A stretch of DNA of 64,000 nt from Bispira polyomma (Eukaryota), in contig OZ287749.1 of the NCBI GenBank assembly GCA_965649765.1, positions 51,522,001-51,586,000 on the forward strand. Reading direction: 5' to 3'. Below are positions 27,587-63,946 of this stretch, in pieces; position 1 is the first letter of the stretch; the number at the start of each line of letters is the position of its first letter. A program made the position numbers and the translations under genes. The notes under the pieces are model-generated. The model searched no databases. It was given only the letters and a program-made list of their open reading frames with translations, and had not been told where the DNA came from.

Positions 27587-27587
<1 letters not shown>

Positions 27588-27668
<81 letters not shown>
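27588..27668. repeat. (TA)~40 microsatellite
   Basis: Perfect TA run ending ~330 bp upstream of the copy-2 ATG. Confidence 0.98.
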
Positions 27669-27671
<3 letters not shown>

Positions 27672-27998
27672 AATACCTTGTTATTGTCTGCATGTATATG
27701 TTACATATGGACTATTTAATAGTTTAATAGAGCTTGAGTGTTTGATCAACACATACTGGCCTGGATCGGACTGCTTCGGATTAAAATTACACCTGGTACC
27801 CTACTGTATAGAAAGAAATTGTCCAGTAAATACACGTCATTAAAAGAACCATAAAAGAAGTGGTTTGTAAGAACAGAAAACAGTTACAAAACAGTGTAGG
27901 ATAACTTTCCTCTAAAAGCATATACTACTTGGTACTAGACGTAAAACAGGGCCTTTTGATATTCTTGTGTTTTCAAGGCCCACCAGAAAATCAATACT

Positions 27999-34693: not shown

Positions 34694-34763
34694 TTCTGCT
34701 ATAGATTATGCTTTGTGTAATTGTTTACTAAACATCTGCCAGTATAAATATGTCTGTGCTTAG

Positions 34764-34980: not shown

Positions 34981-36812
34981 TTAGAAATATGTGTTGTGTT
35001 AAATGGCTTCTGTAGTTTTTGGCAGTGTATGATATTACTGTAAATACATTCTCCAAATTAAACTGAGCATAAAGACTCATCTCAGATAAAAATGTAAATT
35101 TCAACCCAAAACAGATTATTATTTTGCTCAGACAAAATATAAAATTGACATCACAGAATAAATGGAATTGTATGTACCTTATTGTATGTACCTTATTGTA
35201 TGTACCTTAATGTATGCACAGCTTGTATTTTACTTAGGAACCCAAAGCGAACTAGTAATGGTTTCATTGGGTCAGTATTTAATCAGTTGGCAATCTGTTT
35301 TCCTCTATAGCCTTTACTGTAAACAAAACTTAAATGGTCTAATTCAAAATTGAATTGTACAGGTAAAGTTACCTCTTTTTTTCTATATATACTAACTGTC
35401 CTGTTGTAAATAGTTTTGTCTGTTTTATTGTCTGGTTGTCATACATGTATTGACTATGTACTATGAGTATGAAATAAACTTTTATTGTCACTACTCTCAT
35501 TTTATTTAAAATTGTCCTATAACTGCTTTAAAATTTGTTTCTTTACAATACCTTATAAAATAGCAGCCATCCATGCACTGTCTATGCACTGCCTCGGACA
35601 ATTATGATGATGGTAAAATTAAAAGACAAAAAATACATGCATTACTTTGGATTATTAGTAGAAGTAATAGTAAAGTAGAAGTGAAGCAGGGATTTAGAAT
35701 GCCCATCGACACAATTGCAACTAAAATTGATAATTTTTTCAATCTTCATAATTCTGTGCAGTTGACATTTGGGTTTTAGGTCACTTTTAGCATCTTCGGT
35801 CATATTGTGATGGCTAAATTTATTGGTGCAAAACTAGTACTATTTCTACCTGGAAATCACTGACCTACGGCTAATACTTTTCCCATATAAAGAATGCATT
35901 GCGAGTCGAACCCGTGTCCTTGGAGGCGAGAGGCTTATAACTAGGCCACTGCACCCCTTGTAATTCTGTGACTACTATAATATGTATATCTCAAAAAACA
36001 TAAACTGAAATGCTACAAAAAAATTTGATGCTTGGCAACCCTTCTGGTAAGGTTTTTAAACGTACCGATCTGACCAAGGTGACTTTTTTGGCCCAAAATG
36101 GGTCAATTTTCATGTTTTAGCTTTATATCTTGTTAGTTGATGGGTTTAGAGTCTTGGAATGTATTGTAAACCTATCGGAAACCAGCGTCAGGCAATCTAA
36201 TACACTGATCGTATTTGACCTACAGCCTTGGGTTCAAAGTCAAACTGGGGTTGTGAAGGTCACAATGAGAAGGAAACTGATGATATGCCCTTTCGGGCAT
36301 TTAGATTTTGTTTTAAACTTCGACTGATCGTGATGTTTTAGTGGGTAGATTGAAGGTTCATGATTTAATCCTATTGATGTTACTATGCAGGCAACTAAAT
36401 TACCAAGTAAACTAACATTTAGCCAATTACAAGAAGAAATTGTTCCCCTGTCCCCTATAATTTAGCTATATTTCGAGGACTGTATTATACACTCTATTTA
36501 TCAAATACTTTCATAGGGAAAAACACATTACAACTTATAGTGGTCTAATGGACAAATTTAATTTGACACAATAAGCCTGAAAGCCACCAGTACCACATTT
36601 ATTATATAGTGACGATCATAAATGTGTAGGCATCAAAATTTGCCTTGTAGTGTATGACTTGTCGCATGGAATTTAAGTCATTAAGTCCAAAAATACTGCA
36701 TTGTATTTAGCTTTTGGTCAATTTTGGAACTTGTGGATTTTCTGGGTAAAATTTATTTCAGGTTTTTTTTTTTTGATTTGTAAGATTATCTTTACCAAAA
36801 TTAATTTTAAAA

Positions 36813-39800
36813 ATGGCACCTGGTGTTACTAGATGTGTACAGATTGTCTACATACTTTGCTTTTGTATTGGAACAGTTTTGGGGAAATCAATTCTCGGAA
36901 ATCATCCAGAAGATGTCAAGTCTAATCAGTTGAAAAGAAAAGCAGACAAACTTAGCAAAAAGGAAAACTTTGTTGATTATTTACAGAAGCGAGGAAAAGG
37001 TAAGTTAATGTTACCTTTTTAAAAATATTTAAGTATTATTTACAATTTTTAAAAGTTAAAAACATTTTTTGGTGACAGCAACTAAGTATACTCTTTCCAT
37101 ATTACAAAAGATTCAAGTCTACATATATCAATGTGGAATAGAAAGTATTTATTGCTAAGTAAGTAAGAATTCATTAATTATGCTTGGGGAAACCATGTTA
37201 CAGTATAATCTCCATATGGTGAATGCTCATGGAACCCAGCCCAAATGTTCACTGTAAAGAGGTGTTGAGTATTTGGAGGTTATGTATAATTCACTGGCGG
37301 AAAAACTGAACCAATTACGAGGTTCACTATATACATATATATATGGAGGTGTGCACTACTCAGAAGTTTTCACTAATGGAGGTTTTACTGTATGAAATCA
37401 TATAATACCGCTCTTTGCAGTGTATTTAGTGAGAGAATAACTATTAGTTTAATTTGGTAGGTCTGATTTATATGTATTGATGCAGATAGTGATTTCAAGC
37501 TATGGCCATTTCAAAATGACACTACAGTCAGGAAATGGTTAGTTAATGTGTCCATACACACTTACAAGAAAGCTAGGTTCATGTATGTCAATACATTATG
37601 GCCTGGTCACACCTAGACGTGTTAATGTCCCCCAACGTACCTAAGCAATATACACTGAAAAAGGTGGTAGTGTCAAAATGACGTCATTTCCATAAAGGGG
37701 TAGTCAATTGTTTTGTGACGTTTCGAGGCAATGTTGGTTCTTGTGCACACAGAGCGGGGGCAAAAATCGAACACTTTACTGGTAGGATATCACTACCTTC
37801 TACTACATAGATCTACTTTACTGCTACTTACTGGTTCATTCTGTTGCCTTCTACTACTGAGTGAAACATTTTTGACTAACAGAGACGAGTGGAGATGATC
37901 TCACTACTTACTGTGACTTCCTCGCTACCTACTACTATGCAGAGCTACTTACTGATATGTCTATGCTACTTTCGGAAATGTTCTGGGACAAACAGAGAAA
38001 CGTGGAGAAACGGGAGCTGTTACACAATTGTTTGAAACAATTTTAAACAAACGTCGCAGCAGACGAAATGGAGACGTTTTGGGAACGATATCATCTGTTA
38101 ACCAACGTCACGGAACGAATGCACCAGGGATCCTCACTTTTGCATTACCTTCTACTACGTTTATACTAGGTTTCACCTACACGTAGCTCCAGCATGTGTA
38201 GGTGTGACCAGGCTTTTCACAAGGATATGGCCATGTGCCACTGTCTAACAGGTTCAATGAAAGGTGAAAGCTGTTGTGACGAGATGATGTATTATTGAAT
38301 TATTTACTCTTTTGTAACCTTACATCTCCTGCACGGAAAACACTGGTTTATCATTTCATAATATTTTATATGGGGATATATAGACAAGTTGGACAAATTA
38401 TACACACAATTCTTATTTAACAATGAAACACAAGTACTGTAAACTATGAGCCTAATGAATAAAGATTTAGCCATCATATTATACAGTTGGTATGTTTAAG
38501 GCTCTCTAAAAGGATTTCCATAACCAAATTGATCAGATTCTTAAAGTCAAGGTACCCTACCTACATTGGTGGGGTAAATTGTATTTTAAACAACATAAAC
38601 TGATTAATTAAGATACTGTACTACCTTTAGAGAATGAGTTAGTATATTCTGGGGGATAGTTAAAGACATCAAATGCATCAATCAAGCAGGCACTGAGTAT
38701 ATAGAGGTCATATCAATATGTTAGTGTATTTCTCACTTGGCGCTTGTATCTTTTCTTTTAAAATACGTCTTTTGCTTCATGTGCATTACTAAGCCCCTAT
38801 AACATTAACATATAATTGTTTTGCAAAAAATGTGTACTTCTCTGTTAGGTAAAGTCAGCTGGAAGGAATGTGACGTGGATGATGATGTCAGACTGGACTG
38901 TGGTTTCTATGGTGGCACAGAAGAAGAGTGTTACAAACGGGAGTGTTGCTGGGGTCAAACCAGTACACCTGGAGTACCCTGGTGTTATTATTCCAAACGT
39001 GAGTTCACCTGATTATAAGAACAAATGTGACTTGACATGGTTTTAAATGGCAGTTGACGGTTTTTGAACAATCGTGGAATGATGTGCATTTTGTTAAATG
39101 TTAGTTGACAAGCTTTTTAACCTTGGTGTAAATTTTAATGCAAAAACGTGAGTGACATGTACAGTGTTTTTTAAAAAAAATAACAGGTTTAAATTGACAT
39201 ACATGTATTTTTTTTAAAAAGTAAGTTAACAGGATATTAATGGAGCGGAATTTTTAGACAATACAATTAAAAAATGCCTATACCAAAAATAAAGGTATAG
39301 TTTTTGTAATATACTACAAACGATTTGTGTGGTTTAATATTTTTGTAAACTTGCTATTTTGTGTTATTCACTTCATGTACTAAACCCAAATAATATGTAC
39401 CTGAGATAGGCGGGTAGAGGGGGACACAATTAAGCAATCTTCGATTCTCTTGTTATTAATTAAAAAATTATTATAGTATTGTAATAGTGTTTTATGCTCA
39501 TGCAGCGGTTGTAAATGTGTGTTTTTAGCCACAGTAACTCAGGAATGTGCCATGCATTCCAAAGAAAGAGTTGACTGCGGAACTTATGGGATCAGGAAAT
39601 CTCAGTGTCTGTACCTTGGTTGTTGCTGGCAACCTATCAATGAAAATGGCATCCCTTGGTGTTTCCATGAGAAAAGTGGGTTTGTTTACATTACAACTAC
39701 TTAAAACAAAACTTAACTGTCATGAGATATATACTCTATTCTAACATAACATGGCTGTGTCCGCGATTCTGATTGGCAGACAGCTTCGGTAAATATAACC

Positions 39801-42800
39801 GTATACCCATAAACGGAAATAGAGTAATTTTGTCTGTAACATACTGGATGCCTAGTAAATATAGTTCCTTCAATAACGTAATTATGCAGTAAAAAAAAAA
39901 GTTGGAATCAGGTAATAATTTTAATTTGTCATATTACTATAGGAATAACTCATGACAAAGCTCAGTATACAGTAATTTTTACCACTGTTTGAGTGTAGAG
40001 ACACTCAATCTTTGCCTTTGTGTTACTACGCCTCCAATTGTGGTAAAAATTAACGTATACCGAGCTCGAGTTTTGTCATGGGTTATTCCTATATGACAGT
40101 ATAGAGTAGCTGACTGAATGTCTGAAAAAAAATTGATTCATATATAGTGTATTCTTGTAGCGATTATGTAATTATTAAGATGTATATGATGTAAGGCTTG
40201 TCACTTCTTTCTGAAGTATCTTGTTCTACATCATAAAACCATGATCATACAAAGAATTTCTTTGGTATTATTATACATGCTTTGTGCTAGAAAGTTAGAA
40301 CTAAATAATATATATTTGGAGAAAATCCAATTTGTTTGTTTATAAATGGTAGGGATAAAGTTTCTGCCATTTCATATGATCTTGTTCTTATTTACCTACA
40401 CATTAAAAGAAGAAAAAGCATACTAACGGAAAGTTGACTATGTAATATACACTTTCAATATTTATAAAGTTAACATCATTATATCAGTTACAGCAATTTA
40501 TTCAAAAAGCACAAATCCATTGAACAGCGTTGATGTACAGAAGGGCAGATTCAGGCATTCCCCCCCCCCCCCCCCCGCCCCCGTTTTCTGGGACTGTGGC
40601 ACTTTTGTGACAGGTATGCACTCCACAGAGTGCCCGTCATAACTGTTAGGTTTAAGTGTTGAGATTTGTGGCCATATTCCCTGAGAACATTCTTAAGCTC
40701 AACTCAGACTCAAGCTCAGACGTAAGACTGCATATTTGAATTCAGCCCTAAAAGCTCTGTTAAAATAAATGGTCACAAGTACAAGTTATTTCCACTATAT
40801 AGAATGTAGTAAGCAGTAGCCTGCTATTTGTACATACTTTCAGAGGAACCAGTACAGAGTGGAGAGTGTGGAAACCCTGCCATCAGTCCCAGTGTGGCTG
40901 GGAGGATTGTGGGGGGCAACAGGGCCAGACCTCACAGCTGGCCTTGGCAGGTAAGTTTCTCATAGATATGGGGAGGAATTTGGTACAAACCTTACAAAAG
41001 ACAGATGTAATTTTCCAAATGGACAACTAAATGACTGAAGATGACCATTTAAATATCCCTATTTAAGGATATACTAATCTAATCCTAGACTAGTACTAGG
41101 CGCTATATCGTCCCTATAAGAAAACTCAAAGCTCCATAGCATCCTAACCAAAGACAAATTTCATAATGAAGAGGACATGCATAGTCAAAGTGTGTATGGA
41201 AAACTGGACTTTGGGATAATTTCAGGGACATTTAGAAAATTATGATCAGGCTTATTCATATGAGTCACTCTAATGTCTAATTTCTTTGAGGAAAACTGGT
41301 TGGCCAGAATAGTACAGAATTGGGGTTCTGAAAATATATCTTTAAGACTACAGATACAATTGAAACGTTGTTATTTTCTCCACTAAAACAAATGGTCTTT
41401 AACTTTTAAAAAATATGTATAGTTATATTTATACATGTATTGTCTTATAATGCCCCACACAATTATGTCATTGCACATGTACTATTGTTTACAGGTGAGT
41501 CTTCAGTCTGGTTCTGGTCACTTCTGTGGTGGAAGTATCATCGACCCACAATGGATTGTATCTGCAGCCCACTGTGAACCAGGGTATGTATTTTAAAAAT
41601 TACTTCAGTGGAACCCCTTTAAGTAAAACTCTGTTAAGACATTTTTCCTGTTATGTGGAGACAAATTTGAAGTCCCATGAAGGCATTTTCCTTTCAAATC
41701 TACCCTGTTAAGTGGAAATCTTGTTTAAGTAGAGGTATTTCTCCTGCTCCTTTGAGTTTTGACTTGAATGGGTTCAACTGTAGATGTACATTGTATAGAT
41801 AATATATACATACAAAGTCAAAGTTTAGGGTTTTACATCCCGCTCAACAGCCAGGGTCATATTGGGACAGGCCCACAGCATTTGTCACTTATGGGAGGCG
41901 AACCCACACAGAGGTGACAGCCTGTGATTAGATGCCAAACTTCCTAACCACTCGGCCACTGAGGACCTCTATATATACATACATATACTACTACTTATTT
42001 GTGTTGGAAATGAGAGTAAAACATAACCACTGGGCCAGCTCCCTGTCTACAAGCATGAAATACATTTAACCAGTTAATGGCAATTACTGTACTTCATTTT
42101 GTACAAACACATACAAAAAACACACAAGACAGGGTTCCCCACAGATACTTTGAAAGGTACATATAATAATCAAATTTAGCTTATAAATTGAATTCTAATG
42201 TAAATCATATATTGCTAACATTAAGAAAAATATGTACATTTTGTTGAATTTGTCATACAGTTGTAGAATGTAATATGGGAAAAATTACAGATTTTGATTA
42301 GATTTTTGAAAGTTCCATGACTTTTCCATGACTTTTTAAATTCCGTGACTTTTCCAACTACCACTTTGGTTTTCCAGGCTTTTGGTAACTCTTTCAAATG
42401 TCACCATTCATTTGAATAGAGCTTTTGACAAGGAATCCCTAATATGTGCCGTCTGATTTAAGATAATTGCCATATACAAATAGATAAACTTTATAAAACT
42501 TTTTCAAAACTAAATAATTTATTATTTGTGATTCTATTTCTCAGCTTTGAGTGGTATGGTGGAGAAAAGTTTATAGTTGCCGGTGTACACAATTTAAAAG
42601 AAGAAACCAGTGTGTATCAGAAAATTGAAGTCGAAGAACTTCTAGTGCACGAAAACTATGATGAATATGAATACGATGAAGACATCATGTTACTGAAATT
42701 AAAGAATCCAATCCAGTTCTCGGATGAAGTGTCCCCCATCTGTTTACCAAACTCAGGAGAGGACTTTGAACCTGGATTGAAATGTTACACCACTGGATGG

Positions 42801-45800
42801 GGAGATTTGGAAGGTAATAATACAGAAGAACCTCTATTATCCAAACTTTTATGTCTAAATAGTGGATTTTACCCTCCTAAATTTAAGTTTTCCTATTGCT
42901 TTACACAGAAATGGGTCTTCTATTATATGAACTTATCCAAATAAAATCTTGCACTCAGAGCATGTTCAGATAATAGAGGTCTTTACTATATACCCTGGCT
43001 GTGTCCTGAGTTAGAGGAGTTCTCACAAAAAATGTCAATATATGACGATGCATATTGTGAATACAATAATGCAATACAATTTTTAAGTGGCGTTCACACT
43101 GTCCGCGTTCTCGGTCCCGGTCTTCCCCCGTACTGACAATGTGTGAAAACTTGTACAAACGTTGGACAACTGGGCATAAATGGGGGTGGAACTTGGGCGA
43201 ATATGGGCGAACGGCAAGAACGGGAGCTGCAGCCGGAAATTTTGAACATGTTCAAAACTTCTGTGGGAGGACCGCTTTGAAAACCCATCTTGAGAGAACT
43301 TGGGAAAACTGCAGGAACAGGGCATAAACGGGAGTTGCACTGCTCAGAACTAGTGTAAATGGGGCTTAAACTGCTCAGACCTGGCCAGAACTGGAGAGAG
43401 CTTGAGAAAACATAACATAACCCGGGCATAAACGGGGCTAAAACGGGTCACAAACGGGGGATGCAAATATATGCAAATAAACATTTTCCCACCTTTTCTC
43501 TCCCGATCAGCCAAGTACATTCTTCAGGTCTTGAGTAAACGGCTAGCCGGGGCTATGCCAGGGCGTGAACTTGGAAAATGTGAACGCCCCTTTAGACACA
43601 GTACGGATCAATATGATGTTTTAGGTTTAACATTGCTTTCAACACATCTTGTAATATATCATGATGTTCAGTTCACTGTTAATGAAAATGAGAGCAGGGT
43701 ATTTTGTGCTCTGTAAACTACTGCTATTGAGCAAGTCTGTTGCCAACCTTTCTCACATACATGTCATGGTTAAGATTCTAACCTATGATTGCAGAGGCGG
43801 GTGTATACTACCACTACCTCACAAAAGCCCCCCCCACCCCCTCCTCCTCCCTATTATTGTATAGCAGTTTTTCTTTTCTCCAAACGTGGTTCCAGTTTTA
43901 TAGAACTTTGTATTTCTCCATTTCAATCTCATTTTATTTCTGACTCTATTCTAATTTTCGTCATTTTTACAGTTTGTTTACTTTCATGCAAGATCACTGC
44001 TTCCAATGTTTACTGCACAATGGACAGAAACTCACTTGATATTGAAATTTGCATTTTTTTTCCAAATGTACATTTAATGCAATTATGATTTTTAGACACA
44101 GTACTACCGACTACAATAACTTGGTTCAGTTTGGGTTAAATGTCGTTTTCAACACATTTTTTATCATATCGTGATGTTCAGTTTACTGTTAAAGAAAATC
44201 AGAGCAGGGTATTTAGTCAAGGTATTTTTCCCCACAAACCATCATCTTTTAGCAAGTCTACTGCCAAATTTATCACATACACGCCAGCACCAAGATTTCA
44301 ACTGACAATGGCAGAGCTGAAAATCGAATGTGTTACACCACTGAGGCCCCTGTGACCCCTTTGACAGTTTTATAATAATGGTACTAGTGTATACAGTACC
44401 AGAAATATACTTGCCATAGGTCAGTGGTTTGCACTGGTTTACAGTGCTTGAGCACCAGTTTCTTGTACAATTAAATCTGGCAGCTGGTGAAAGCGAGGTA
44501 AAACCTAACTAAAATTCAAATACAGTATAGTGGAACCCTGGTAAGTCGAATCTGAAGGGATCATAAAATATTGTTCCACTTAATAGGCATTCTACTTAAC
44601 AGTGTCAAGAGTCATCAGAAAAATAGTAATGGGATCTTAAAGTTAACAGGTAAGTCTACTTATCAGAGTTCTACTTAAACAGGGTTTGACTGTACATTCT
44701 TTTTTTTTTTGTTATGTTTTAGAGGGAGGTGTGAGTCCAGACATCTTACAACAGGTAATGATTCCCCTGATAGAGACTAAACACTGCAACAGTAAGGAAT
44801 GGTATGACGGCCAACTCACCGACAATATGGTCTGTGCAGGGTATGAAGAGGGAGGCAGAGATTCGTGTCAGGTAGGCTCAGATATGTATTCTCAACTTAA
44901 ATCTAGGGTGGGACAAAGTAAATGTGTAGGTGTACAGTCTATACATCACCCCTTATGAGGTCTCATCTTCACAATTGACACTTTATGGTGGAATACACCC
45001 TAGTCTGGGTTCTTCCACTTTATCAAGCAAATATTCACGGAACATACTAGCCATGCTGGCACATATGATACAAAGACAAACACCCATTAGCAGCCAGATA
45101 CCTGTTTATACACCTGTATCGTAAGGGAAAACTTTGGGTGAAGAGTCTTATCTTAAGGGTACAATCTCTAGATTATGGGCCAAATACTCTTAACCAGTAG
45201 GCCACAGAGACCAATATAAAGCCTTAGTTATCTGAACAGCAATATAGTTGACAGAGCAAGTTTTTTAGACAATAAGAATTTCAACTGTATTTATCACAGG
45301 TGAAAGCTGTGGAGGAATGGAATGACATTAGTGTCATGTACAAGGAATTTAATATGGTATTCCCACAGTTTGCATAAGACTGGTTTTGAGTTTGTGTCGG
45401 ATTTGATCGATTTTGAACCGTTTTAACTTTTTTAATGCATGTTTTTATGCAGAAAAAAGGTCAAAAGTGTTCAGGTTCCAAGTGTATACAATTGTTATAC
45501 TCTAACTGAACAATAACTATAGTGACTAAGATGTTTTCCACAAAAAGTTGTGTAGAATATATATAATCTACATTTCTGCCTGATATGTTGTTGTTTGAAT
45601 AACCACATGACAATATACATCGTACTTTATAGGGGGACAGTGGTGGCCCAATGGTTTGCTACCATGACGAGAAGTGGAAGTTAGTGGGCGTTGTTAGCTG
45701 GGGAGATGGGTGTGCTGGCGAGAGAAAGCCAGGAATTTACACCAAGACAAGCAGATACGTACAGTGGATAGATGACAAGATGTCTCAGTACTCTCAAAAA

Positions 45801-45821
45801 CAGAAAAAGTTTATAGCCTAA
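36813..45821 (+). CDS. Secreted trypsin-like (S1A) serine protease zymogen with two N-terminal trefoil (P-type) domains (8 exons, 428 aa)
   Basis: Exons 36813-36999 (signal peptide and pro-region), 38849-38998 (trefoil 1), 39529-39675 (trefoil 2), 40844-40950 (CG..R|IVGG..SWPWQ), 41495-41583 (HFCGGS..SAAHC), 42545-42813 (DIMLLKL..PICLP..TGWG), 44723-44871 (MVCAG..RDSCQ), 45633-45821 (GDSGGP..VSWG.GC..PGIYT). All phases are compatible, 1287 nt. AATAAA at 45936. Confidence 0.9.
37600..38214. mobile_element. Harbinger-like non-autonomous element in protease intron 1
   Basis: TIR GCCTGGTCACACCTA(G)AC / GTGTAGGTGTGACCAGGC; left flank TTA; interior rich in CTAC/GACG motifs. Confidence 0.75.
39938..40093. 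repeat. Long imperfect inverted repeat (hairpin), probable end of a non-autonomous DNA element
   Basis: TATAGGAATAACTCATGACAAAGCTCAGTATAC..TTTTTACCAC / GTGGTAAAAA..GTATACCGAGCT..TTTGTCATGGGTTATTCCTATA. Confidence 0.75.
41815..41970 (-). mobile_element. Short tRNA-derived SINE family B (156 bp)
   Basis: Minus strand A box TGGCCGAGTGG, B box GTTCGCCTCC, CTTTGA-type tail; perfect 13-bp TSD ATATATACATACA (41802-41814 / 41971-41983). Confidence 0.9.
43086..43591. mobile_element. PIF/Harbinger MITE with TTA TSD
   Basis: TIR AGTGGCGTTCACA / TGTGAACGCCCCT; TTA on both sides; GC-rich interior; empty paralogous site at ~44077-44105. Confidence 0.88.
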
Positions 45822-46648: not shown

Positions 46649-48052
46649 TCAACACATCTTTTTAATTGTCCCTAAAACCACACTGTATGGAAAACCAAAC
46701 ATCATTCTGCCATCACACCACTCTGATCTTTTGTTAAAGTTATGAAGGGAAAACACAGGTTTCCTATACACTGTAGAGTCCCGCACACAAACCTCTTTCC
46801 GAGACATTTGCCTTTTCCTGAAGGCATTCTGGTACTCCACTGTAGGAATCTGCATTTTCACACAATCTTCAAAGCTCCAGTTGAATCTAGAGTTCCACTT
46901 AGATGGCTTTACAGTCATCACTTGTGGCATTAACTGTGTTATACAGTCTTCACTTAGTCTACTGTAATTCTTGTGGTCAAAGTTACATGTTTCTACTCTA
47001 TCACAAAGCATTTGACAGTATTGTGCCACACGATCGTTAACATACTTAAAGTGAGAAATTTCCCCTTGAATGTTATCTACATTGCTACTCAATATGTCCC
47101 TCAATTTTGAGTAAAAATGCTGATAAATATTGTAATCAACAGCAGAGAACTTGGCCAAAATGTTCCTCAAGTGTACATCATTCTCAGAACTAGGTATCAT
47201 TGTTTTATTAAAGTGTCTATCATTTCTCACATATAAACTGTGAAATACTAAATCTTTTAAACTCCAGTGTAGTCTCCTTTTCAGGATGACCAATGACTCT
47301 TCAAATAGTTCAGTAATCAATACAAAATCAATACTATCCTCCAGGTTAATCAGAAACTGCTGAATGCTACTCCTGCTATTGTCACTGATATTTCTATATC
47401 CATAATGAAATGCCTGTGGATTCCTGACCTTAGAGAAGAGTCTCCCACTAACTCTCTGATATATCTCCGGATTATTTTGTAAAAAGTACTCGATAGCCTG
47501 GTGTTTCTTTTTGATCCGGAATTGTTTATGTAATTCCCAGAATGCAAAAGTGGATCTCAACTGAGAGAGAGGTTCCCTCAAAATACCAATGGTTACGTAT
47601 CCATCCTGCAAGTAACTTCTGACCGCTCCTTGGTCATAAACACTGTGGTCACATATCATATTGTATGATTGAATATGGTTTTTATTATCCTGCTTTTCAA
47701 ACAGATATTTGTAGTGTGGCTTATACGGATAAGTCATTCCCCATGGGGTATTGTACGTGGCTACTCTCAGGTTATTATTCATAGCATAACGAAAGAAGAT
47801 GTTTTGAGCAGTTGAACTGCCCGTTTTATGAACTTTGATAAAGTATATGTCACTAACTGCACCAGTAGTTTGTGTGGGATCATCTGTGAAAGACTTGTTG
47901 TTTTGTGATGTACTCTTAAGCTCCCTTTTGTGAATTACCAATTTAACACTAACTTCCAAAGCCTCAAATATCAGAATTTTATTTCTCAAAACCAAAAATC
48001 CCCCAAGAACAACTAAAAATAGGAAGATATATTTAATCCCTTTATAATCCAT
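46649..48052 (-). CDS. Galactose-3-O-sulfotransferase (GAL3ST / cerebroside sulfotransferase family), single coding exon, 467 aa from the ATG at 48052
   Basis: Type II membrane anchor YIFLFLVVLGGFLVL; 5'-PSB FIKVHKTGSST; 3'-PB ILREPLSQLRSTF; VLITELFEESLVILKRRLHW; D-x-x-IY-x-HF. Confidence 0.92.
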   Translation of the reverse strand: MDYKGIKYIFLFLVVLGGFLVLRNKILIFEALEVSVKLVIHKRELKSTSQNNKSFTDDPTQTTGAVSDIYFIKVHKTGSSTAQNIFFRYAMNNNLRVATYNTPWGMTYPYKPHYKYLFEKQDNKNHIQSYNMICDHSVYDQGAVRSYLQDGYVTIGILREPLSQLRSTFAFWELHKQFRIKKKHQAIEYFLQNNPEIYQRVSGRLFSKVRNPQAFHYGYRNISDNSRSSIQQFLINLEDSIDFVLITELFEESLVILKRRLHWSLKDLVFHSLYVRNDRHFNKTMIPSSENDVHLRNILAKFSAVDYNIYQHFYSKLRDILSSNVDNIQGEISHFKYVNDRVAQYCQMLCDRVETCNFDHKNYSRLSEDCITQLMPQVMTVKPSKWNSRFNWSFEDCVKMQIPTVEYQNAFRKRQMSRKEVCVRDSTVYRKPVFSLHNFNKRSEWCDGRMMFGFPYSVVLGTIKKMC

Positions 48053-50573
48053 AGCAAAGAACACTAATATTTGAAATAAGACTTTAATAACTTCAAAAAA
48101 TAATTTTGAATGATTGTCAAATATGTTCTATTATTGCCCCGGCAATAGGAAGTGATTATTTAAAAAAATTTGCAAACTTTAATGCTTGTATGTACAAACT
48201 TTACATGCAATACACAGCACAGTCTGTGTTCTGTACATAGAATTAAACTGTAATGCAGGTTGTTCTATGCCTAAGGGCAATACATCAACAACAATGACTT
48301 GTTTTGTACAAGAACTCCCCCAGTGGTCAGTTGTATAGTGACTCAATTAAAGTGCTCATGAATAATTTAACTGAGATCGAGTATCTTTAGGTCAAATTCT
48401 TTTGGCATTAAAGTTATAAGTTATGCTATTAACTTCTCAGAATACCTTTTTGCTGACATAAACGCCTTGGAGGTATAGGTTATTATTTTCATTTTTTTAC
48501 AAAAAGGCGGCTATTCACTAGTGTAAACAGTGTTATTGGGGTGTACCTTAAATTAGGTCTACTTTTAAGCTGTACACAAAACTGGGTGTATTTTTCAGGA
48601 CAAGTTTCTGTAAATACAAAGGGCACAACACAAGTAATATGGCAGCTTAAATACAGTGGTTAAATCCATGTTTGTTTACATTCTCAGCACGGCAAACATA
48701 TATAACATTGTTGTATTCAAGTTTGCTCAGAGAATACTAAAGATATGAATTTCACTGGTGGTATTTTGTCAAGTTAATGTGAGACACTGGGTCAGATCAT
48801 CTATTTTATCCCAAAAATGGTGTAATATTAAGTATCATATTTTTAACATGGATATATGGCAGGAATAAAAGGCATTGCAAAATTTACTGAATTAAAGTAG
48901 GATTGTACATTTTGCAAAAATGTCTATATTGTGTCTTTGTCATTAACCTGCATTGCTCTATAGTTTGTTTGTTTTTAAAATGCACCTCATAAGATCAATT
49001 ATGTGGTGTAATTTATATTGAATGAAAGAAGTACTGCTGGATTGTGACTAGGTATTTAACTACAGTATCTGCTGAAATATTACCATTCAGTGATCTAAAA
49101 TCTCTTTAGAAGAATGAGCGAATATAATTAAAAGGTAGGGGGCTTAAATACAGGGAATACAGTATATTCTATACAAGTAAAAATGGATTTGATTCTCAAA
49201 TTAAACATTTTGCCTTTTTCAAAACTTATAAATTTAAATGGACTTATACCAGTACACATGGAGTACAATGTAAGACTATTAAAATATTTTACACAAGATA
49301 TTTTTGTAAAATTAGTTTGTGACATATTTGACTGATCTTTGCTACCTGAATTTATGTTTATATTATCTCACACAACTGCTAGCCTGAGTGCAGTCTAGTC
49401 TTGCCCACCTTATGAAAGCTAAAAATAGAACAGCATAAGATTCCTATCATAGCATTTAATGTCAAATGAAATTAAGAAACTCCTCTTGAAAATCAAGACT
49501 TCCAGATAAATCAAAACAGACATTAAAGATCTAAGTTATTTGAGTCCACAATAATCAATATAAAAATTGATCTAATAAAAAGATTGTTTGATAATTTTAT
49601 ATTACCACGGTCTTATTAAAAGTATGTGTACCAATTCAAGTTAGAGTGACAAGAGAAAAAAATCAGGCAATATTCTTTTAGTTGCGCGGACAAAATAACG
49701 GTGGACAAAATACCGGTCAAATTTAACAAAATGCCAGCCGAGTTTCTTTGGAGTTCTTTGGTACACTTTTTTTGTATTTTCTCTGGTGGTTGTCTGTGGG
49801 TTGCTTAAAGTAAAATAGTAGTGACCAGTGTTAAGAAGGCCAAACCATTAAGCATGCCACAAAAGTGTCTGAAGTCTTTATCTTTTTTAGAGATCTTTTA
49901 GTCCAAGCCCTTGACCTTTGCGCCATGTAGTTTTAAAGTAAAGGAATTTGTGTAAAATGGTAAAAGCATAAAATTGTTTATAGTATTGTATCACAACATA
50001 TTTTTTTTGCAAATATAATATGATGACATTGTTAATAGTACTGTTTTATCAAAACATTAGTTGTAAATATAATGTCTTTGAAATGTTTTAATGTTTTGAC
50101 TACTGGCATTTTGTCAACCCACCCAAAAAATCGGCCGGCTTTCTTTCGAGTTCATATTAAGTATCTATTGCTTTGTAACTGAACACAAAAACAACAACTG
50201 ATACTTGCTTACTTTATAAAAATACTATATTTTTCAGTAAAATATTTTATTCTTGAGACATATTTAGACAGCTTTTTTTTACAAATGCCATATGCTTCTT
50301 CACAAATAATTTCAGCGTTAATAATTCATGCCACAATATCTACATCTAGTTACATATTTTTAGAATAATAAATTTTATCTTTATCTTTTATATACAACAA
50401 TACACTAATTAAACATCTCTATTTTAACACAAATGACTTAATATAAGAAATCTTATATGCTATTTTAAAAATCAAATGCTAACAAGAAATAGAATTATTC
50501 AAAATCTCTCTACATATAGTATATAACTTCATTACAGATTGTCCTTGATTTATTCACTTTACTTCTGCCAAAG

Positions 50574-53500
50574 TTACTGACAGTTTCTATTTTTAGAAAC
50601 TCCCTCTGTGTTGGGATCAAACTCTGCCTGGCTGATGTAGTGACTGTAGAGGTAACAGTTACATCCGTACCAGCGCTCGCGGACACTGTAGGCCATACAG
50701 TAGCCCCAGGGATGGTCTTTGAGGCACAGAGATTCACACCTGTCAATAAATGCACATCTTAGTCAATACAAATTAAAGATTGGCTGGTACTTGGTTTAAT
50801 TCAGTGTTTTGGTGGTCATACCATCATCTAGCAGTCAGGGAAATGGTCTTTTAATCAAAAGGTCTTTGGACCGACTCCCAGTAAATTGATGTTTCTTTGT
50901 CAGTTTTTAACAAATACAGTGATCATTAGAGGATAACATACTCGGGCAAGATATGAAGAAATGAATTAACTTCCAAAGAGAAGCAACACATTGTAATAAT
51001 AGGATTGTTACTTGTTGGTAAACAAGTACTTTAAATTAACCATTGTTAATAAGTAAGTATTCATAAATCATCAGATTTCTGTGACTGACCCTTTCAGTTC
51101 TATTTGAGATATGTCAGAAACAAATCTCAAATATAAGAAGGGATAAAACAGTACAAGGCCACTGATATTCTTCACTACAAAAGCAAATGAAGACATTAAC
51201 AAATTAGGTAACATTACTGTTTATTTGTGACTTATATTTTCGTTTGTGGGACGCACTAAAACTTCAAACTTCTGTCAAATATTCTACTTTATCAACTTTA
51301 AAAAATTCATGTGTTTCCATATTTTTTAACCAATTCAGTTTTGTTTTAGTTAGTAGCCCTCTATTATGCGAGTAGGATGTTCTTGCTCCAATTGATTATG
51401 ATAACAGTGGTCTTACTGCGATTTTAGTTCTTTAATTTTCTATATGTTAATGGCACCTCGCTTTAATTCAGCTTTAATTTGAATGATACTACTTCCGAGT
51501 ATGAAAATACGTGTTTCTAATAGAGGGGGCCAGCAGTCTCATATTCTTTAAAATTAAAAGTAAAATTGAATCACAGACAAAAGTCTGCATGCCATAAACA
51601 ATCATTATGGGCTAACAAATGTTAAACCTTTGAGAATTATAAATTTTATGTTAACAAAGCACAATCAATAAAAAATACTTGTAGATTACACTTACTTGGT
51701 TTCACACCCGATCACGAACCACTCCTTATCACGATAATCTTCATGTACGGCCTGCTTTCCGACCATATGAAACGTTTCATCCACTGCGCAGGGAGTATTT
51801 GCTGGTAAAAAAGGCGGTGAGATATTGTTACATGTCAAGTAGTGGGTAAAAATATACACATGCTAGAACAAAGTTATTTTCTGTGTGATTATTATATATT
51901 TAGGGGCGAATAGACCTGGCCGATTTTGCTTCCAAATCTGTCATGCGATTAAAGTAATTTTAAAGTAGTAAGATTATTTCAATGACTTTACTCCTTCCTG
52001 CGTCCTAGTGGATATGGAGTTGGTCTGGTGATAAGAAAGTCCCTGGTTTTACCCCCCGGTTAGGCGAGCTGGTCTGGTGATTGGAAGATCCGGATTGGAA
52101 GGTCCTGTTTGGCTCACCTTCGACTCCCGCTAATGCTGATTGGTGGGATAACATTCTTAGCCAATGTGTGACCACACCATATTGCCTATTGGTGATGATT
52201 CAGGCTTTGTCGTAGGACTATCCCTTTAGAGAAAGAACTCCTTAGAGGATGATATGCTGTATAAATGCTTCAGTAATAACTAGCATATTTTCTTGTTAAA
52301 AAAAATATTTTAAATTCCAATACTGACAATAACATAATTATGCATATTGTTGATGTAATTCCGAAGTTAGATGCTGAAATTGTGTCATAATAGTATTTCA
52401 GATTCAGTTTATTCGACAACATTTATTTCTTCAACCATTTAAAATAACTTAGATAAGCTTATGCAGACACTAATGAACATCTATTGTGCTTTTTAAATGG
52501 CATTGGTCATCATCAAAAACAAAATTGTGCTCAAAAAACTATACTTTCCCCCGAATGTAGTGTAACTTACTACCGTGCTACTCATTTTTCCTTCAGTAAC
52601 CTTAAGAGAGGAAAGAGAGTCTCAGTTTCCTCTGTGGGATCAACCAAGAGGGCTGGATCTAGAGTTTTCTCAAATGCTGCCCCTATATTATGGAATAGTC
52701 TCCCAGTTGAGCTTAGATCACTAGAAACACTATCTGGGTTTAGGAGAAAACATAAAACCTATATTTTCAACCTCCCTTATCCCCTTTAATTCCCTCCCTG
52801 TAGACCACAACATCCTTCCTTATGACATGGCTATGTTTAGGGACTTCTTCTTATATGAAGATTGAGAGGAGTAACATAGCTCCACTGAGGACTATTTTAT
52901 TTTTATTGGGAAGTGCGATATTAAACTATAAATCCATACTCCCTCAGCCACTTTTTTTTTACATTAAACCTATGTTAAGAGAAAATGTTTTATAAAGACT
53001 ACTATTTATGCTTGCACACTTCACTCCTCCTGGTCTTTATAGACGAGTTTAATTACCTTTACTATCCAAACATGTCAGCAAAGCAAGATTTTATTTAGTT
53101 AACAGAAGGTTTGTAAAACAGTAGAGGCATTTCAGTATTAAACAAGAGGATATTAAACATTTGTGAGAGTAAAAATTAGTTCCAAAAATCAACTGTTCCA
53201 ATAATACATTTGTAGAAGTTTGGACAACAGAGGTTATACTGTAATAATCTAATAGGGGTACTTACACTTCCCGCAGGCTACCAGACAAGTGTGTTCACTT
53301 GGGAACTTGTTGTCATTTCCTTCACAGCCTCCATAGGTGAACTGTTCACAGCGTCTTGTGGCAGGATTGTAGTACCACAGACGGATGTTAGCCATACAAC
53401 TACCAGTTACTGGGCTCAGAGAACAGATGTCTTCTGTGGATTTATAGCAAATTTTGCATTAAGAAATGTAAACAAATACAGTAGAACCTCTATTATCCAA

Positions 53501-56500
53501 ACATGTTGCTAGAGCAAGATTTTGTTGAGATAATAGAAGGATTAAGGTTTTTAAAAGAGAATAGGCATTTTAATATAAAACTATAGAAGAAAATATTTGG
53601 AAGACTGAAAATGAGTTCATAAAAATAGAATATTCAGGTAACAAAAGTTTAGATAATAGAGGTTCTACTATATTGAATCAGTCAGGACATCGTATTTAGT
53701 TGTATTCGTTTAGCGAGATTGCCAACAGTATCATGATGAACCTCTTCATCATTCACAGGTAATGCAAATTAATGGTCATCATCTTCTAAGATACAGAAAT
53801 ACAAGAGAGTGAAACCCCTTTAACTGTGTTAATTGTACTTCTGTGTTCTGTGGAGGAAAAGATAGAGCTCAACCAGAGCATTGTCTTTTAAAATGTACCC
53901 TCTTAAGTTTAGAAGTCCTACTTAAATGGAGGCATTTCTTCTGAGGTGATATTTATTTAAACTTTCAAAAATCTCAAAAACCTTTTGAATATGTCCCATT
54001 ATATCTTTGTGTACAAGAAAAATATCTAAAATCTGACTGCATTTTAAAGTTCCTCGCTGAGAGCTCGATCAAAATGTCTTGTTTAAATTTGCAACTTTTG
54101 ATAAATGCCAACTCTGGTCCTGTCAGATCTGTGAGATTCAACCAAAAAGGGTTCAACTGGATCGAAACGAATCACTGGATTTGGCAAACGTCTACATAAC
54201 GCTGAACCATAAGAACAACACTTGAACCCTAAGGCTGTGACAGTAGGGAGAATCACTTTCAACATGGCCGTGCCCTGTCCAGTGAATTGTAGAATTTACC
54301 CTTCAACTGTGTGATTGTTTTACCTGATGAACATGTACGAATACATTCATGCTCTGTAGAGAACCTGTTCCTGCTTCCTTTACATCCCCCATATATAAAT
54401 CGCTCACAAGTACCAGTTGTATCATTGAAATACCACTGTGGTATTTTAGCCCTACATCTGCCAGTGGCTGGAGGTTGTTTGCACACATCTGAAGAGACAC
54501 ATGGTTTCCAGTTTAAATACAGAAATACATAATTAAGACATTAATTTTAATCATTCTCAAAAAGTTACTGCTTGTGAAAACCATTTTACGAAAAGTTTGT
54601 TGCTACAGATATTTTTGTATTGTGGATTTTTAAGACTTACATCAGATTTGATAAACCAATAATTACCATTGTAATACATAACCAAATGGTCATCATCAGT
54701 AGACATCACTGTCCACCACGATCTTTATGGTGTTACTATGAGTTGAAGTGGGGAACCTTCTGATCATAAGACTATTCAGTACTTCCACTATTAACTATTC
54801 AGTTAGCTTGTGGACATTCAAAGTGCTAATCAACCTCTTCTTGACTGTCCGAGTATAACCAACAAGCACCAGAGAAAAGCATTTATCAACATCCCCAAGG
54901 TTCTTTAACCTGCCACTGGGGTATTAAAATCCAATAACTAGGGACTGCAATTTTAAATGGTCATGCAGGTCACTACGTATTTGTCTGTATGTGGTTGCCC
55001 GAGACTGTGCATGAACCTATGTCCTCTGCATTCTTAAGCGAGTGTATACTACCCAAATTGCCACAGTGGCAATGCACTGGAGGAATGTAAAACATGATAA
55101 TTGGTTCATCAACTGCTCATCGACAGACACAGTTCACTGGACTAGAAACTTCTATCAGCTGTTAGTTGACAAACAGAATAAAGACGAGGGCAACAGGAAG
55201 TAAAGTAGAACCTCTATGATCCAATCAAGTTTGGAGAGCAAGATTCATCAAATAAAAGAGGCCTTTTAAGATTAAAATATAGATAAATATAAATTTGGGA
55301 GAGTATAATTATGTGGTTAATTGAAATTCAGATGACAGAGGTTCTACTGTAAATTTCAGTGGATGTTCTTTCACCTAAACATGTGTCCAAACATCCCTCT
55401 TGTGTGGGGAATCTATTCCTGCTTCCTTTACATCCACCGTATATAAACTGCTCACAAGTACTAGTCGTATCATTGTAATACCACTGTGGTATCCTGGCCC
55501 TGCAGCTGCCAGTAGCTGGAGGTTGTTTGCAGATTTCTTCAAAACAATAATGATGTATCATTATGTGGTGGTGGTGATTTTACAAATTATTAAGAAGTCC
55601 ATCTCTATTTAGATCACTTATGTTATGTTACAATTACCAGTACTCTTAAAAACAGAAATTTGGACCTGAAAATGACTTTTGAAATGGATTTGCTCATATC
55701 AATGACATTTTCTTATACATGTACATTACATGTCATGTGGTTTGTTTAAATTTTATACATGTAATAATTTATACCAATTAATTAAATAGATTATTACAAC
55801 AAATGTGTACATGTTGGTAATAGTAAGTTCATTTTAATATTTATTTTAACAGGATAAACTAGAGTGGCATCCACTGTTGCATTTTAGCTTAGATTTATAA
55901 AACTTGCACCTATTGTTTTCGCTCTGACCAGATGTTTCATGTCTTGAATCATTTGAAAATATTCAACTTTTGGAATAATTTTTTACTTAGTTTGCTGACA
56001 TTTAGTGTATCAATCTTTCTTGAATCTATCTTCAACTGAACCAGCATTTTTTAGTATAAATTTGAAATAATTGATAGCAGGCAAGCTCTTTATTTATAGG
56101 CAGCCGTCTGTGATAATTCAAAATAACAGTTATCTTCAAATTCAATAGGTAATTTTTTTGACTGTTCTTCATCTGGTCCAATAGAATCGTTAAACTGAGG
56201 AACCACATCTTACCTCTAATTGTATTTAAAAGACCAGCATCCAATATAGGCTATTCTGAGTCATTGATGAGATTTACCTTCCACAGAAGCCACAGTTCAC
56301 AATTTTTTAATCGAAAGAAGAGTTTAGAAAGGGTACTATAGTTATGATACTACCTTCAAAAGTAGTGTGGCCTGTACAGACATGTAATTGAGTCTTTGAT
56401 GATACAGTAGAACCTCTTATTATCTGTTTTACGGACCTTCTATTATCCAGACAAATTTTCACTCTCCCAATATGGTCGGATAATAGAGGTTCTATTGTAT

Positions 56501-57705
56501 TTGGATGTTGTAAAACCCACAGTTAACTGTTCACAATAATATCAAAGAAACGTTTTACAAAAAGTAGCTTATTAATTTAAGTCTTGATTTAATTACATAG
56601 TAATTTAAAATAATTTTTTATCATTTTTTAAATAATTTACTTTTAAATTAAAAAGAAATGAGCGGTTTTTTTTTACTATAGGGAAACCAAAAGTTTGACT
56701 ACACTTGTGAAAATAGGCAAACATGTACATATAGATTACATGTGATGTGACTGATGCATAAGAGAACGACTGATGAAAACATTGATAGTTATCAGACAAG
56801 TGATAAATGAAACACTTGAATAAAATGTTCACATTACACATGTTTACTGAAATCACCACCAGTAAACTTGAGAAATAATAGAGGCCAAAAACCAGTAAAT
56901 ATGCGTATTTACTGAAATTTTTAGGGATTACGATTATTTACTGACTAAACCAAATTTTCAGTAAGTACTTGTATTTACTGATTTCGCATATTTACTGTGA
57001 CATATACAAAGTTATATAATCCTGTGAAGTCGAACCCAATAAACAACTAAATCTACTTTAACAGGATTTCATAAAAAGAGAGAATTCTAGTTATCAGAGT
57101 TTTACTTACTAGGGACTTGGCTGTAATAATTGAGTGGGACTTCTCAAAACTATTCAATTGTACAAACTCATTCTGCTTTCCCATAGTAATATTGTATTCC
57201 TATTGTTTTATCTCCAGTGCCTTTTCTATTCTATGTGCCTTCTATATTATTCAGCCTATATATCTTACACCCCTCCCTAACATGTTCAGATAATAGAGGT
57301 CTGACACCATCACTAATATAAATGGGACAACTAACTTTTCTCCACCAGTTATTTACTTATGCAATAGTTAAACTCCTGGTTAATTTGTTTTCAAAATTAA
57401 CAGTATTACTTATAATGGCCACTTAAGATGTATCGAAAAAATGCCTATACTTATGATAATTAATTGAGGTATATTTTTAAGGTATATATATTCTTCTGGT
57501 AGTAACCATTGCTATTAACTGCTATGATTGAGCATAGGATTAACACTAACATACAACATGTAGTTTATATACAGAAAACATATTACATGTGTTGTGTTAT
57601 ATTAAACTGTAAATAATTACCCAAGGCATCCTGGTCTTGTGATGCTTGCACACACAAACTGCTCCCTACTAATATGATGACCATTTTCATGAACACCCCT
57701 GCCAT
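50574..57705 (-). CDS. Secreted protease inhibitor: signal peptide, 3 Kunitz domains and a C-terminal PAN/Apple-like domain (6 coding exons, 283 aa)
   Basis: Minus-strand exons 57705-57621 (MAGVFMKMVIILVGSSLCVQA..), 55536-55375 (Kunitz 1, GSCRAR), 54488-54324 (Kunitz 2, GRCRAK), 53433-53266 (Kunitz 3, GSCMAN..YGGCEGNDNKF; absent from the ORF track), 51801-51696 and 50739-50574 (PC..GCETKCESLC..YCMAYS..GCNCYLY..NCQ*). Phases 1,1,1,1,2 are all compatible, 852 nt. Confidence 0.85.
52590..52937 (+). mobile_element. 3' fragment of an L2/CR1-group LINE, antisense in an inhibitor intron
   Basis: GSRVFSNAAPILWNSLPVELRSLETLSGFRRKHKTYIF matches the ORF2 C-terminal pattern G-x-R-x-FS-x-AAP-x-LWN-x-LP...FK-x-x-LKT-x-LF; followed by a 3'UTR-like end. 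Confidence 0.8.
53478..53671. mobile_element. Tc1/pogo-type MITE (representative of a locally abundant family)
   Basis: TA|CAGTAGAACCTCTATTATC...GATAATAGAGGTTCTACTA|TA; relatives at ~34297-34487, 37199-37393, 41606-41783, 42821-42991, 44528-44694, 53055-53243, 55203-55351, 56403-56499, and partial copies near 57300, 58310, 59465, 61280. Confidence 0.8.
56403..56499. mobile_element. Tc1/pogo-type MITE, short copy
   Basis: TACAGTAGAACCTC...GAGGTTCTATTGTA. Confidence 0.75.
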
Positions 57706-62188: not shown

Positions 62189-63946
62189 CTAGACCTAGCG
62201 CATCAGAAAACTGATGCATATTTGTATCCACCAGAAAGACGGCACCCTAGGTAGGAAACACCTAAGCTATGACTACCCTCGTCTGACCTTGAAGGAGGGG
62301 CCCAAGGTCAAACCCGACCACATCAGAAGATTCTCAGTCCATGATTACCTATAAGTTGGTTTCACATTGGAAACCTGTAGGACCAATAACTAGACCTTGT
62401 GCATCGGACAACCGATGCATATTTGCATCCACCAGAAAGACAAAGCACCCTAGGTAGCAAGCACCCTAGCTAGCACCCCAGCTAGGAGCCTATGATTTCC
62501 TATAGGGCATTTATGCTAAAGCCTTAAATCGCACAAGTGGGTTTCACATTGCAAACATGTGGGATAGGCACTTTAAAGTTTGGCCTACCTGTTTGACCTT
62601 GCACAAGGGATCCAAGGTCAAATCTGACCACAGCAAAAGATTCGCAGACCTTGATTTCATACAGGTTGGTTTCACATTTGAAACCTGTGGGACCAATAAT
62701 AGGCGAGATAAAGGCACTTTTAAGTTTGACCATCGGCATTTGACCTTGAACGAGGGGCCCAAGATCAAATCTAAGTATATGAAAAGATTCCCAGCCCATG
62801 ATTTTCTATAGATTGGTTTGGCACTCCAAACCAATAATAAGCGAGATAGAGGCAGTTTTAGGTTTGGCCATCCCTGTTTGACCTTGAAGGAGAGGGCCAA
62901 GGTCAAATGTGAGCACTTCAAAAGATTCCCTGCTTATGATTTCCTATAGGTTGGTTTCAGATCCCAAACCTGTAGGACCAATATAAGGCGAGATATAGGC
63001 ACTAGGGAAAATTTGGTGAAAATCGGTCACTTGGGGTACTTTGGCAGTAGTTTTCCCAGGAGAGCGTAACGGTAAAATCTCTGCACACATTGACGCGTCG
63101 GCGGCGGAATGATGACTAATCCATAGTATCGACCGGAGTTACTGCTTCGGTGGATACAATAAGCGAGTCATAAGCACTTTCAAGTTTGGCTATTGTCATT
63201 TGACCTTGGAGGAGGGGCCCAAGGTCAAACCTGACCACATCAGAAGACTCCCAGCCCATTATTTCCTATAGGCTGGTTTTACATCTCAAAACTGTAGGCC
63301 CAATAATAATAGAGTTATAAGCACTTTTAAGTTTAATTACCCTCGTCTGACCTTGATGGAGGGGCCCAAGGTCAAACCTGACCACATCAGAAGACTCCCA
63401 GCACATTATTTCCTATAGGCTGGTTTTACATCTCAAAACTGTTGGCCCAATAATAATAGAGTTATAAGCACTTTTAAGTTTAACTACCCTCGTCTGAGCT
63501 TGATGGAGGGGTCCAAGGTCAAACCTGACCACATCAAAAGATTTCTAGCCCATGATTTTCCATCAGTAGGCTTAACATGCCCAACCTCTAGGACCAATAA
63601 TAAGGGAGATATAGGCACTTTTAAAGTTTGCTATGTGGGGTACTTTGGCATTCCGTGGATGACCTTGAATGAAGAGCTTTAAGGTCCTATGTCTGCATGC
63701 TTGCAGAGGACATATATATCTGTATACATATCATCTATGAATAGATTTAACCTTCTAGTTACGAGAACCAGCCAGTAGAAAAAGGTGGATAATTTTCAAA
63801 GAAATGCCAATCCTAATTTTAGTCGCAGAGAAGCTTACCTCCCAATGAAGATATCCTGCAAATTTCGTGAAGCAAGCTGGTCTAGTTTTTGCTTAGTCTC
63901 TCGGCAGCGTACACTAAACCAAAGTATCCACCGGATCGGTGGATAC
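62189..63946 (-). mobile_element. Helentron-type non-autonomous element (outer copy) with ~147-bp internal tandem repeats
   Basis: Element 5' hairpin/subTIR GTATCCACCG-gat-CGGTGGATAC (63924-63946); 3' subTIR at 62224-62232; hairpin GCATCAG-aaaa-CTGATGC; terminal CTAG; TT-type flanks; repeats carry TGACCTTG...CAAGGTCA palindromes. Confidence 0.8.
62390..63157 (-). mobile_element. Helentron-type non-autonomous element (inner copy nested in the outer copy)
   Basis: Own CTAG end, hairpin TGCATCGG-acaa-CCGATGCA, subTIRs GCATCCACC / GGTGGATAC; splits an outer repeat unit ACCAATAA|AATAAGCGAG. Confidence 0.85.

Follow-up and report, generated by a model that had tools for sequence, protein, structure and literature searches.

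A predicted three-Kunitz inhibitor of Bispira polyomma ends in a putative PAN-fold domain overlooked by standard annotation

Introduction

Within a 64,000-nucleotide stretch of the Bispira polyomma genome (GenBank assembly GCA_965649765.1, contig OZ287749.1, positions 51,522,001 to 51,586,000; hereafter ‘the window’) lies a gene predicted to encode a secreted inhibitor in which three Kunitz domains are followed by an eight-cysteine terminal domain that very probably has a PAN fold. This end domain had been overlooked by standard annotation and is now identified in a small family of relatives, one of them a Capitella protein in which it is likewise joined to Kunitz domains. With it, the fusion of Kunitz domains to a PAN-type module of four disulfides is now seen twice, probably by independent origin. 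Should the module serve as an anchor, the protein would illustrate how protease control can be confined to a surface in an invertebrate, and the Capitella gene opens that hypothesis to testing in a laboratory animal. No general principle is altered, as both modules and the Kunitz-PAN pairing were already known.

A six-exon gene for a secreted protein

The predicted gene runs on the minus strand from 57705 to 50574 (Table 1), and its six exons join in frame across five introns, all GT-AG, with phases 1, 1, 1, 1 and 2 in the gene model. The joined coding sequence of 852 nucleotides is one open frame of 283 residues with a single terminal stop. An earlier note, made from the letters of the window, had proposed this span and the junctions 53266/51801 and 51696/50739, all of which proved exact; it had also remarked that Kunitz 3 and the last exons were missed by the track of open reading frames (ORFs), which fits ORF lengths of 48, 55 and 40 residues for Kunitz 3, exon 5 and exon 6 as against 77 and 75 for Kunitz 1 and 2. 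We hold the architecture of signal peptide, three Kunitz domains and end domain over six exons to be very likely, and the exons are presumably spliced as modelled; the three read runs pass unbroken through the introns, as reads of DNA would. The gene is present in one copy, the exon 6 locus being the sole strong match in the genome and read depth over the last exons being that of single-copy sequence.

An in-frame stop stands two codons upstream of the start codon of exon 1, and candidate acceptor sites on its 5' side raise the possibility of an additional first exon without coding sequence. The signal peptide is likely cleaved after Ala21. In 15-residue windows, hydrophobicity peaks at 2.16 over residues 4-19 and stays at or below 1.14 everywhere after residue 30; because the sole strongly hydrophobic stretch is N-terminal, the mature protein is predicted to be secreted without a membrane anchor. 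Beyond the candidate polyadenylation signal listed in Table 1, a second AATAAA occurs at 50251.

Table 1. Features of the predicted inhibitor gene (positions within the window)
Feature	Position	Strand	Evidence
Exon 1: start codon, predicted signal peptide, short acidic spacer	57621..57705	-	
Exon 2: Kunitz 1, P1 Arg, N-glycosylation sequon at Asn50	55375..55536	-	PF00014, E 1.2e-20; six Cys, canonical spacing
Exon 3: Kunitz 2, P1 Arg, sequon at Asn104, exon 2 duplicate	54324..54488	-	PF00014, E 1e-20
Exon 4: Kunitz 3, P1 Met	53266..53433	-	PF00014, E 1.2e-20
Exon 5: putative PAN-fold domain, part 1 (Cys198, Cys226)	51696..51801	-	Alignment with P0001, P0002, P0003
Exon 6: remainder of putative PAN-fold domain (Cys230, 234, 243, 255, 257, 282), stop codon	50574..50739	-	Four relatives; fold from relatives
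Candidate polyadenylation signal AATAAA	50549..50554	-	20 nt past stop codon

Three Kunitz domains

The three Kunitz exons named in the earlier note each encode one Kunitz_BPTI domain (PF00014), at about 74 bits against a Pfam cut-off of 21 and E values near 1e-20, with six cysteines at the canonical offsets 0, 9, 25, 33, 46 and 50 and with short linkers, of 3 and 5 residues, between domains. The P1 residue determines the protease specificity of a Kunitz domain, Arg directing it to trypsin-like and Met to chymotrypsin- or elastase-like enzymes; read from the loop sequence, the P1 residues of Kunitz 1, 2 and 3 are Arg, Arg and Met. Judged from its sequence, the protein quite probably inhibits proteases. 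Exons 2 and 3 are identical at 40 of 51 residues and 130 of 162 nucleotides, with a dN/dS of about 0.24 (a rough count over 53 codons), and the introns that flank them retain no mutual likeness; by this comparison the extra, third Kunitz copy is a product of exon duplication within the Kunitz 1/2 pair. Kunitz 3 matches the second Kunitz domain of the Capitella protein, which has Lys at P1, at 28 of 51 residues.

Joining of the end domain to the Kunitz exons

Evidence that exons 5 and 6 belong to this gene comes from Capitella teleta CAPTEDRAFT_227921 (ELT95275.1; UniRef R7TWC0; P0003 below), in which a signal peptide and a pair of Kunitz domains precede the same eight-cysteine terminal domain. 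The spliced model is identical to it at 105 of 200 positions with a single one-residue gap, placed between Kunitz domains, and residues 137-283, spanning both junctions 53266/51801 and 51696/50739, align without any gap. As a fused and colinear protein, the Capitella relative supports the joining of exons 5 and 6 to the Kunitz exons that the earlier note had proposed, in the sense of agreement between two genomes, as the Capitella protein is itself a predicted gene model. It is likely an orthologue, its sequence suggests, although it carries two Kunitz domains (P1 Arg and Lys) rather than three (Arg, Arg, Met); its first Kunitz domain has a sequon at the equivalent place, and its database names cite the Kunitz domain only, the protein being uncharacterised.

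That exons 5 and 6 might remain unspliced to the Kunitz exons in B. polyomma, so that the product ends after Kunitz 3, has some points in its favour, as read-through past exon 4 meets a stop within five codons, intron 4 contains five AATAAA hexamers that would make a short isoform possible, and stand-alone forms of the end domain are known elsewhere. Against it, the phases match at the exon 4/5 boundary, the donor is of consensus type, the acceptor of exon 5 has the highest pyrimidine content among all AG sites of the gene, and the Capitella counterpart is fused and colinear; we regard such a truncated product as highly improbable. The end domain may have been joined by exon shuffling at a phase-1 intron. 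By eye, none of the PAN_1 or PAN_4 matches listed for the genome lies within about 0.2 Mb of its Kunitz matches, of which there are at least 118.

A PAN-type fold outside the known profiles

The end domain comprises 90 residues with eight cysteines (198, 226, 230, 234, 243, 255, 257 and 282). No Pfam family is recognised in exons 5 and 6, the locus is missing from the genome-wide match lists for PAN_1 and PAN_4, and relatives P0001-P0004 match no PAN family at the Pfam cut-offs for PAN_1 or PAN_4. Six cysteines are invariant in the family alignment, save that the truncated P0002 is without the first, and the four central invariant ones align with PAN C2-C5 in the pattern C1 ... C-x3-C ... C ... 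C ... C6.

The fold itself was read from AlphaFold models of two relatives, P0001 (identical to the end domain at 50 of 89 residues) and P0003 (46 of 89), built on alignments of only eight sequences. The P0001 model has a pLDDT of 85-95 over the domain and runs strand, strand, helix, hairpin, strand. Compared by VIA with 48,161 PDB representatives, it finds PAN/apple chains at all of ranks 1-12, the first being 4a5t, a plasminogen structure and the sole match to reach a Z of 8 (Z 8.1, rmsd 2.7, 76 residues aligned). The HGF N domain (Z 7.9, rmsd 2.8, 77 aligned), SML-2 (Z 7.0, rmsd 2.9, 72 aligned), factor XI/prekallikrein (Z 7.0) and LAPP (Z 6.4, rmsd 3.5, 77 aligned) are also matched; lower rows hold WSC (Z 6.0), MANEC (Z 5.3) and saratin (Z 4.0), and the first clearly unrelated row has a Z of 4.4. 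The Capitella model retrieves the same PAN/apple set at lower scores (best Z 7.3); its Kunitz half is misfolded (pLDDT below 50), and the helical matches were disregarded. For each relative the remaining four models scored much lower.

Other comparisons were weaker. Foldseek returned no match at E<=0.001 for either model (best 1.0 and 0.07), and the top rows for the better model were all PAN proteins. Comparing profiles with 30 PAN loci of the same genome gave a probability of 7.6 and a score of 17.9, where the highest of 60 shuffles reached 16.1, and the Atlas gave no more than leads of 0.85-0.87 for exon 6 and nothing usable for the Capitella domain. The PAN fold proposed in the earlier note is supported by the models of the two relatives, although no Pfam family detects it. 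On the strength of these models we consider it very likely that the end domain has a PAN fold, as the earlier note had suggested from its eight cysteines.

A small family and an extra pair of cysteines

Queried with exon 6, a collection of 1.84 billion cluster representatives yields four relatives, at E values from 3.9e-18 to 5.9e-5. Exon 5 is identical to P0001 at 16 of 33 residues, to P0002 at 13 of 27 and to P0003 at 17 of 32 (in the genome, P0002 matches exon 5 at E 0.2), and the exon 5/6 junction is free of gaps in all four relatives aligned. Because exon 6 alone retrieves four relatives and the two exons align without a gap at their junction, the end domain is more than a chance pattern. 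In P0001, which comes from a 16-kb contig, the entire domain lies in one open frame and the similarity begins at the start position of exon 5; this protein hints that its organism shares the intron before the domain and has none inside it.

Three relatives from short contigs, P0004-P0006, are stand-alone proteins of 149 residues, without Kunitz domains, in which a predicted signal peptide and an acidic pro-like segment, with a dibasic site close to its end, precede a six-cysteine form of the domain; they are possibly an undescribed family of small secreted proteins. They keep Tyr216, Pro239-Trp240-Gly241, Trp252 and neighbouring aromatic positions. As the domain, with its conserved residues, also exists without Kunitz domains, a Kunitz partner is seemingly unneeded for its role.

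Word-index searches added nothing new: exon 6 found no relevant protein in its one longer candidate, proteins of 297-2000 residues gave none among 4314 candidates, and proteins of 29-296 residues gave 3 of 409, all already known, with the Capitella protein missed; such searches are lossy and set no bound on family size. Three metagenome loci, out of 121 pattern matches, were short chance matches without the cysteine pattern, and the family profile found nothing relevant among PDB sequences beyond one chance row. Titles and abstract openings in the openly accessible literature describe no invertebrate Kunitz-PAN protein, nor does the accessible part of PMC13425148. The family is real, small in the collections covered and apparently undescribed.

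Cys226 and Cys255 are both present in this protein and in P0001, P0002 and P0003, and both missing in P0004-P0006. Their joint absence suggests that the two pair with each other, as the earlier note's ‘extra’ cysteine pair implied, and counts as one event, P0004-P0006 forming one cluster. The residue equivalent to Cys226 sits, in the model of P0001, one helix turn before that of Cys230 and the equivalent of Cys255 two strand residues before that of Cys257, a geometry that would be expected for a second helix-to-strand bridge. The disulfides would be 198-282, 230-257 and 234-243, with 226-255 as the extra one. Among the best 30 of 34 PAN_4 matches in the same genome, none has the extra Cys226/Cys255 pattern. 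The mature chain holds 26 cysteines, an even number, all of which can pair within it.

Comparison with known inhibitors

The earlier note had called an inhibitor with a PAN module unusual, which overstates the case: HAI-1 (SPINT1) combines two Kunitz domains with an eight-cysteine, four-disulfide MANEC domain of the PAN subclass that tunes inhibition (PMC12940448). The two proteins differ in layout, HAI-1 having its MANEC domain at the N terminus, followed by PKD-like, LDLRA and membrane segments, whereas the PAN-type domain here is C-terminal. In MANEC the extra disulfides connect helix 2 with the N terminus and strands 2 and 4 with each other, rather than helix with strand as we infer here, and MANEC fits the P0001 model less well than does the plasminogen/HGF type (Z about 8). 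The MANEC family PF07502 matches none of the relatives, and its sole match in the genome lies 19 Mb away. Since domain order, extra disulfides and the other domains all differ and MANEC profiles are unmatched, the pairing probably arose independently in the two lineages of protein. HAI-1 was rejected as an identity for the protein, given its C-terminal domain, the missing PF07502 match, the lack of room for PKD-like and LDLRA segments in 283 residues and the absence of a membrane anchor.

TFPI, with which the earlier note had compared the protein, turned out to be a weak parallel. It too is secreted and has three tandem Kunitz domains, followed by a basic C-terminal tail; the protein here has no such tail, its terminal 90 residues forming a predicted folded domain with 9 Lys and Arg against 13 Asp and Glu. 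Its Kunitz domains are also set closer together, by linkers of just 3 and 5 residues, and the third of them has Met at P1; TFPI was ruled out as an identity. The best match among PDB sequences is instead SmCI (4bd9), a tri-Kunitz protein of the annelid Sabellastarte magnifica, whose domain 1 is closest to Kunitz 1 (57.5 bits) and domain 2 to Kunitz 3 (51.7 bits). The likeness is one of sequence, and the 165-residue chain of SmCI ends in its third Kunitz domain, without a PAN domain. According to the accessible text of PMC6365037 SmCI inhibits trypsin and elastase, and according to that of PMC6365037 and PMC9966942 carboxypeptidase A as well.

Leech LAPP and saratin are secreted annelid proteins with a PAN fold and without Kunitz domains, and the single-domain layout of LAPP is similar to that of the stand-alone P0004-P0006. 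The family profile matches neither in sequence at E<=10; LAPP was set aside as an identity for the protein.

What the end domain may do

In the mechanism that we propose, trypsin-like enzymes would be the targets of Kunitz 1 and 2, with their Arg at P1, and chymotrypsin- or elastase-like enzymes those of Kunitz 3, with its Met, while the terminal predicted PAN domain would tether the secreted inhibitor to a glycan or matrix protein at a tissue surface. By analogy with other PAN proteins, we judge such anchoring to have an even chance of being right, bearing in mind that a PAN fold by itself demonstrates no function. The matched PAN structures were, by their entry titles, solved with heparin, galactose, lacto-N-biose or kininogen, and the accessible part of PMC7191736 reports that LAPP binds collagens I, III and IV. 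An outside ligand is favoured over packing on the Kunitz domains because the stand-alone P0004-P0006 keep the same aromatic positions. The net charge of the end domain ranges from -5 to +4 across relatives, so a basic patch of heparin type is not conserved, and a neutral glycan or a protein is a likelier ligand than heparin.

Alternatively, the end domain could tune inhibition itself, by folding back on Kunitz 3 or by binding a protease exosite as MANEC does in HAI-1, whose N-terminal domain slows association of KD1 and whose MANEC glycan helps to mask a loop (PMC12940448). The short link from the last Kunitz to the PAN-type domain, equal in length in Capitella, and the extra cysteine pair of Kunitz-fused forms, missing from stand-alone ones, would suit such tuning. 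It sits less well with stand-alone relatives that retain the conserved residues although they contain no Kunitz domain that these could influence, and with an adjacent Kunitz domain whose P1 differs (Met here, Lys in Capitella) beside a PAN-type domain that is 46/89 identical, and we think it rather unlikely. Were the end domain instead to form dimers or oligomers and so raise avidity, the conserved aromatics could serve as the interface, and some PAN domains do dimerise (factor XI apple 4, HGF NK1); with every cysteine of the mature chain able to pair internally, we rate this as very unlikely. Slightly less probable again is a role in defence or as a venom-type secretion, with the Kunitz domains directed at the proteases or ion channels of other animals: the accessible literature discusses annelid Kunitz transcripts as toxin homologues, and leech saliva contains PAN proteins according to the available part of PMC7191736, but the gene is single-copy and conserved in Capitella, its inhibitory loops are canonical, and the low dN/dS between its duplicated exons speaks against such a role.

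Returning to surface anchoring, a bolder version, which we put forward as speculative and on balance doubtful, would make the end domain a new PAN subfamily, invisible to Pfam, whose ligand is exposed collagen or a cuticle glycan, much as for LAPP, yielding a wound- or surface-homing annelid inhibitor of broad range, built from the same pair of modules as vertebrate HAI-1 but independently of it, and given an added helix-to-strand disulfide when fused.

Genomic neighbourhood and minor observations

On the opposite strand, ending about 4.8 kb downstream of the inhibitor gene, a predicted secreted protease gene (36777-45818, plus) encodes two trefoil domains on separate exons (E ~2e-14) after a signal-like exon, together with a trypsin domain that has the catalytic motifs; the residue preceding the region of the GDSGG motif points to specificity of the trypsin type. 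The product of this gene is a possible target of the inhibitor, on grounds of adjacency only. Between the two genes lies a single open frame of 492 residues (46652-48127, minus) with a galactose-3-O-sulfotransferase match at E 4e-38, and at ~20200-34700 (plus) there are at least two tandem acyltransferase genes of DGAT2/MOGAT type, with a Pfam match on one exon. An integrase-like fragment seen by eye (1557-1859, plus) and a frame that weakly matches the PHD finger (9016-9474, plus) are probably transposon remains, and tandem repeats with translated-frame periods of about 396 and 147 bases occupy 12960-14036 and ~62200-63700, respectively.

About 0.2 Mb from the gene, a PAN_1 exon (L004:5260-5793, minus) and a weak MANEC-like exon (L005:3217-3708, minus) flank a LINE-like reverse transcriptase frame; they are unrelated in sequence to the end domain, which does not match these PAN-type exons. 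Immediately past the end of the window lies a Translin-family exon (L006:3022-3561, minus). Elsewhere in the genome, the erythrocruorin linker family has three matches over its cut-off, as would suit an annelid without proving one, and a single strand carries upward of 15 Kunitz exons at C2:17.08-17.12 Mb, probably parts of one large multi-Kunitz gene.
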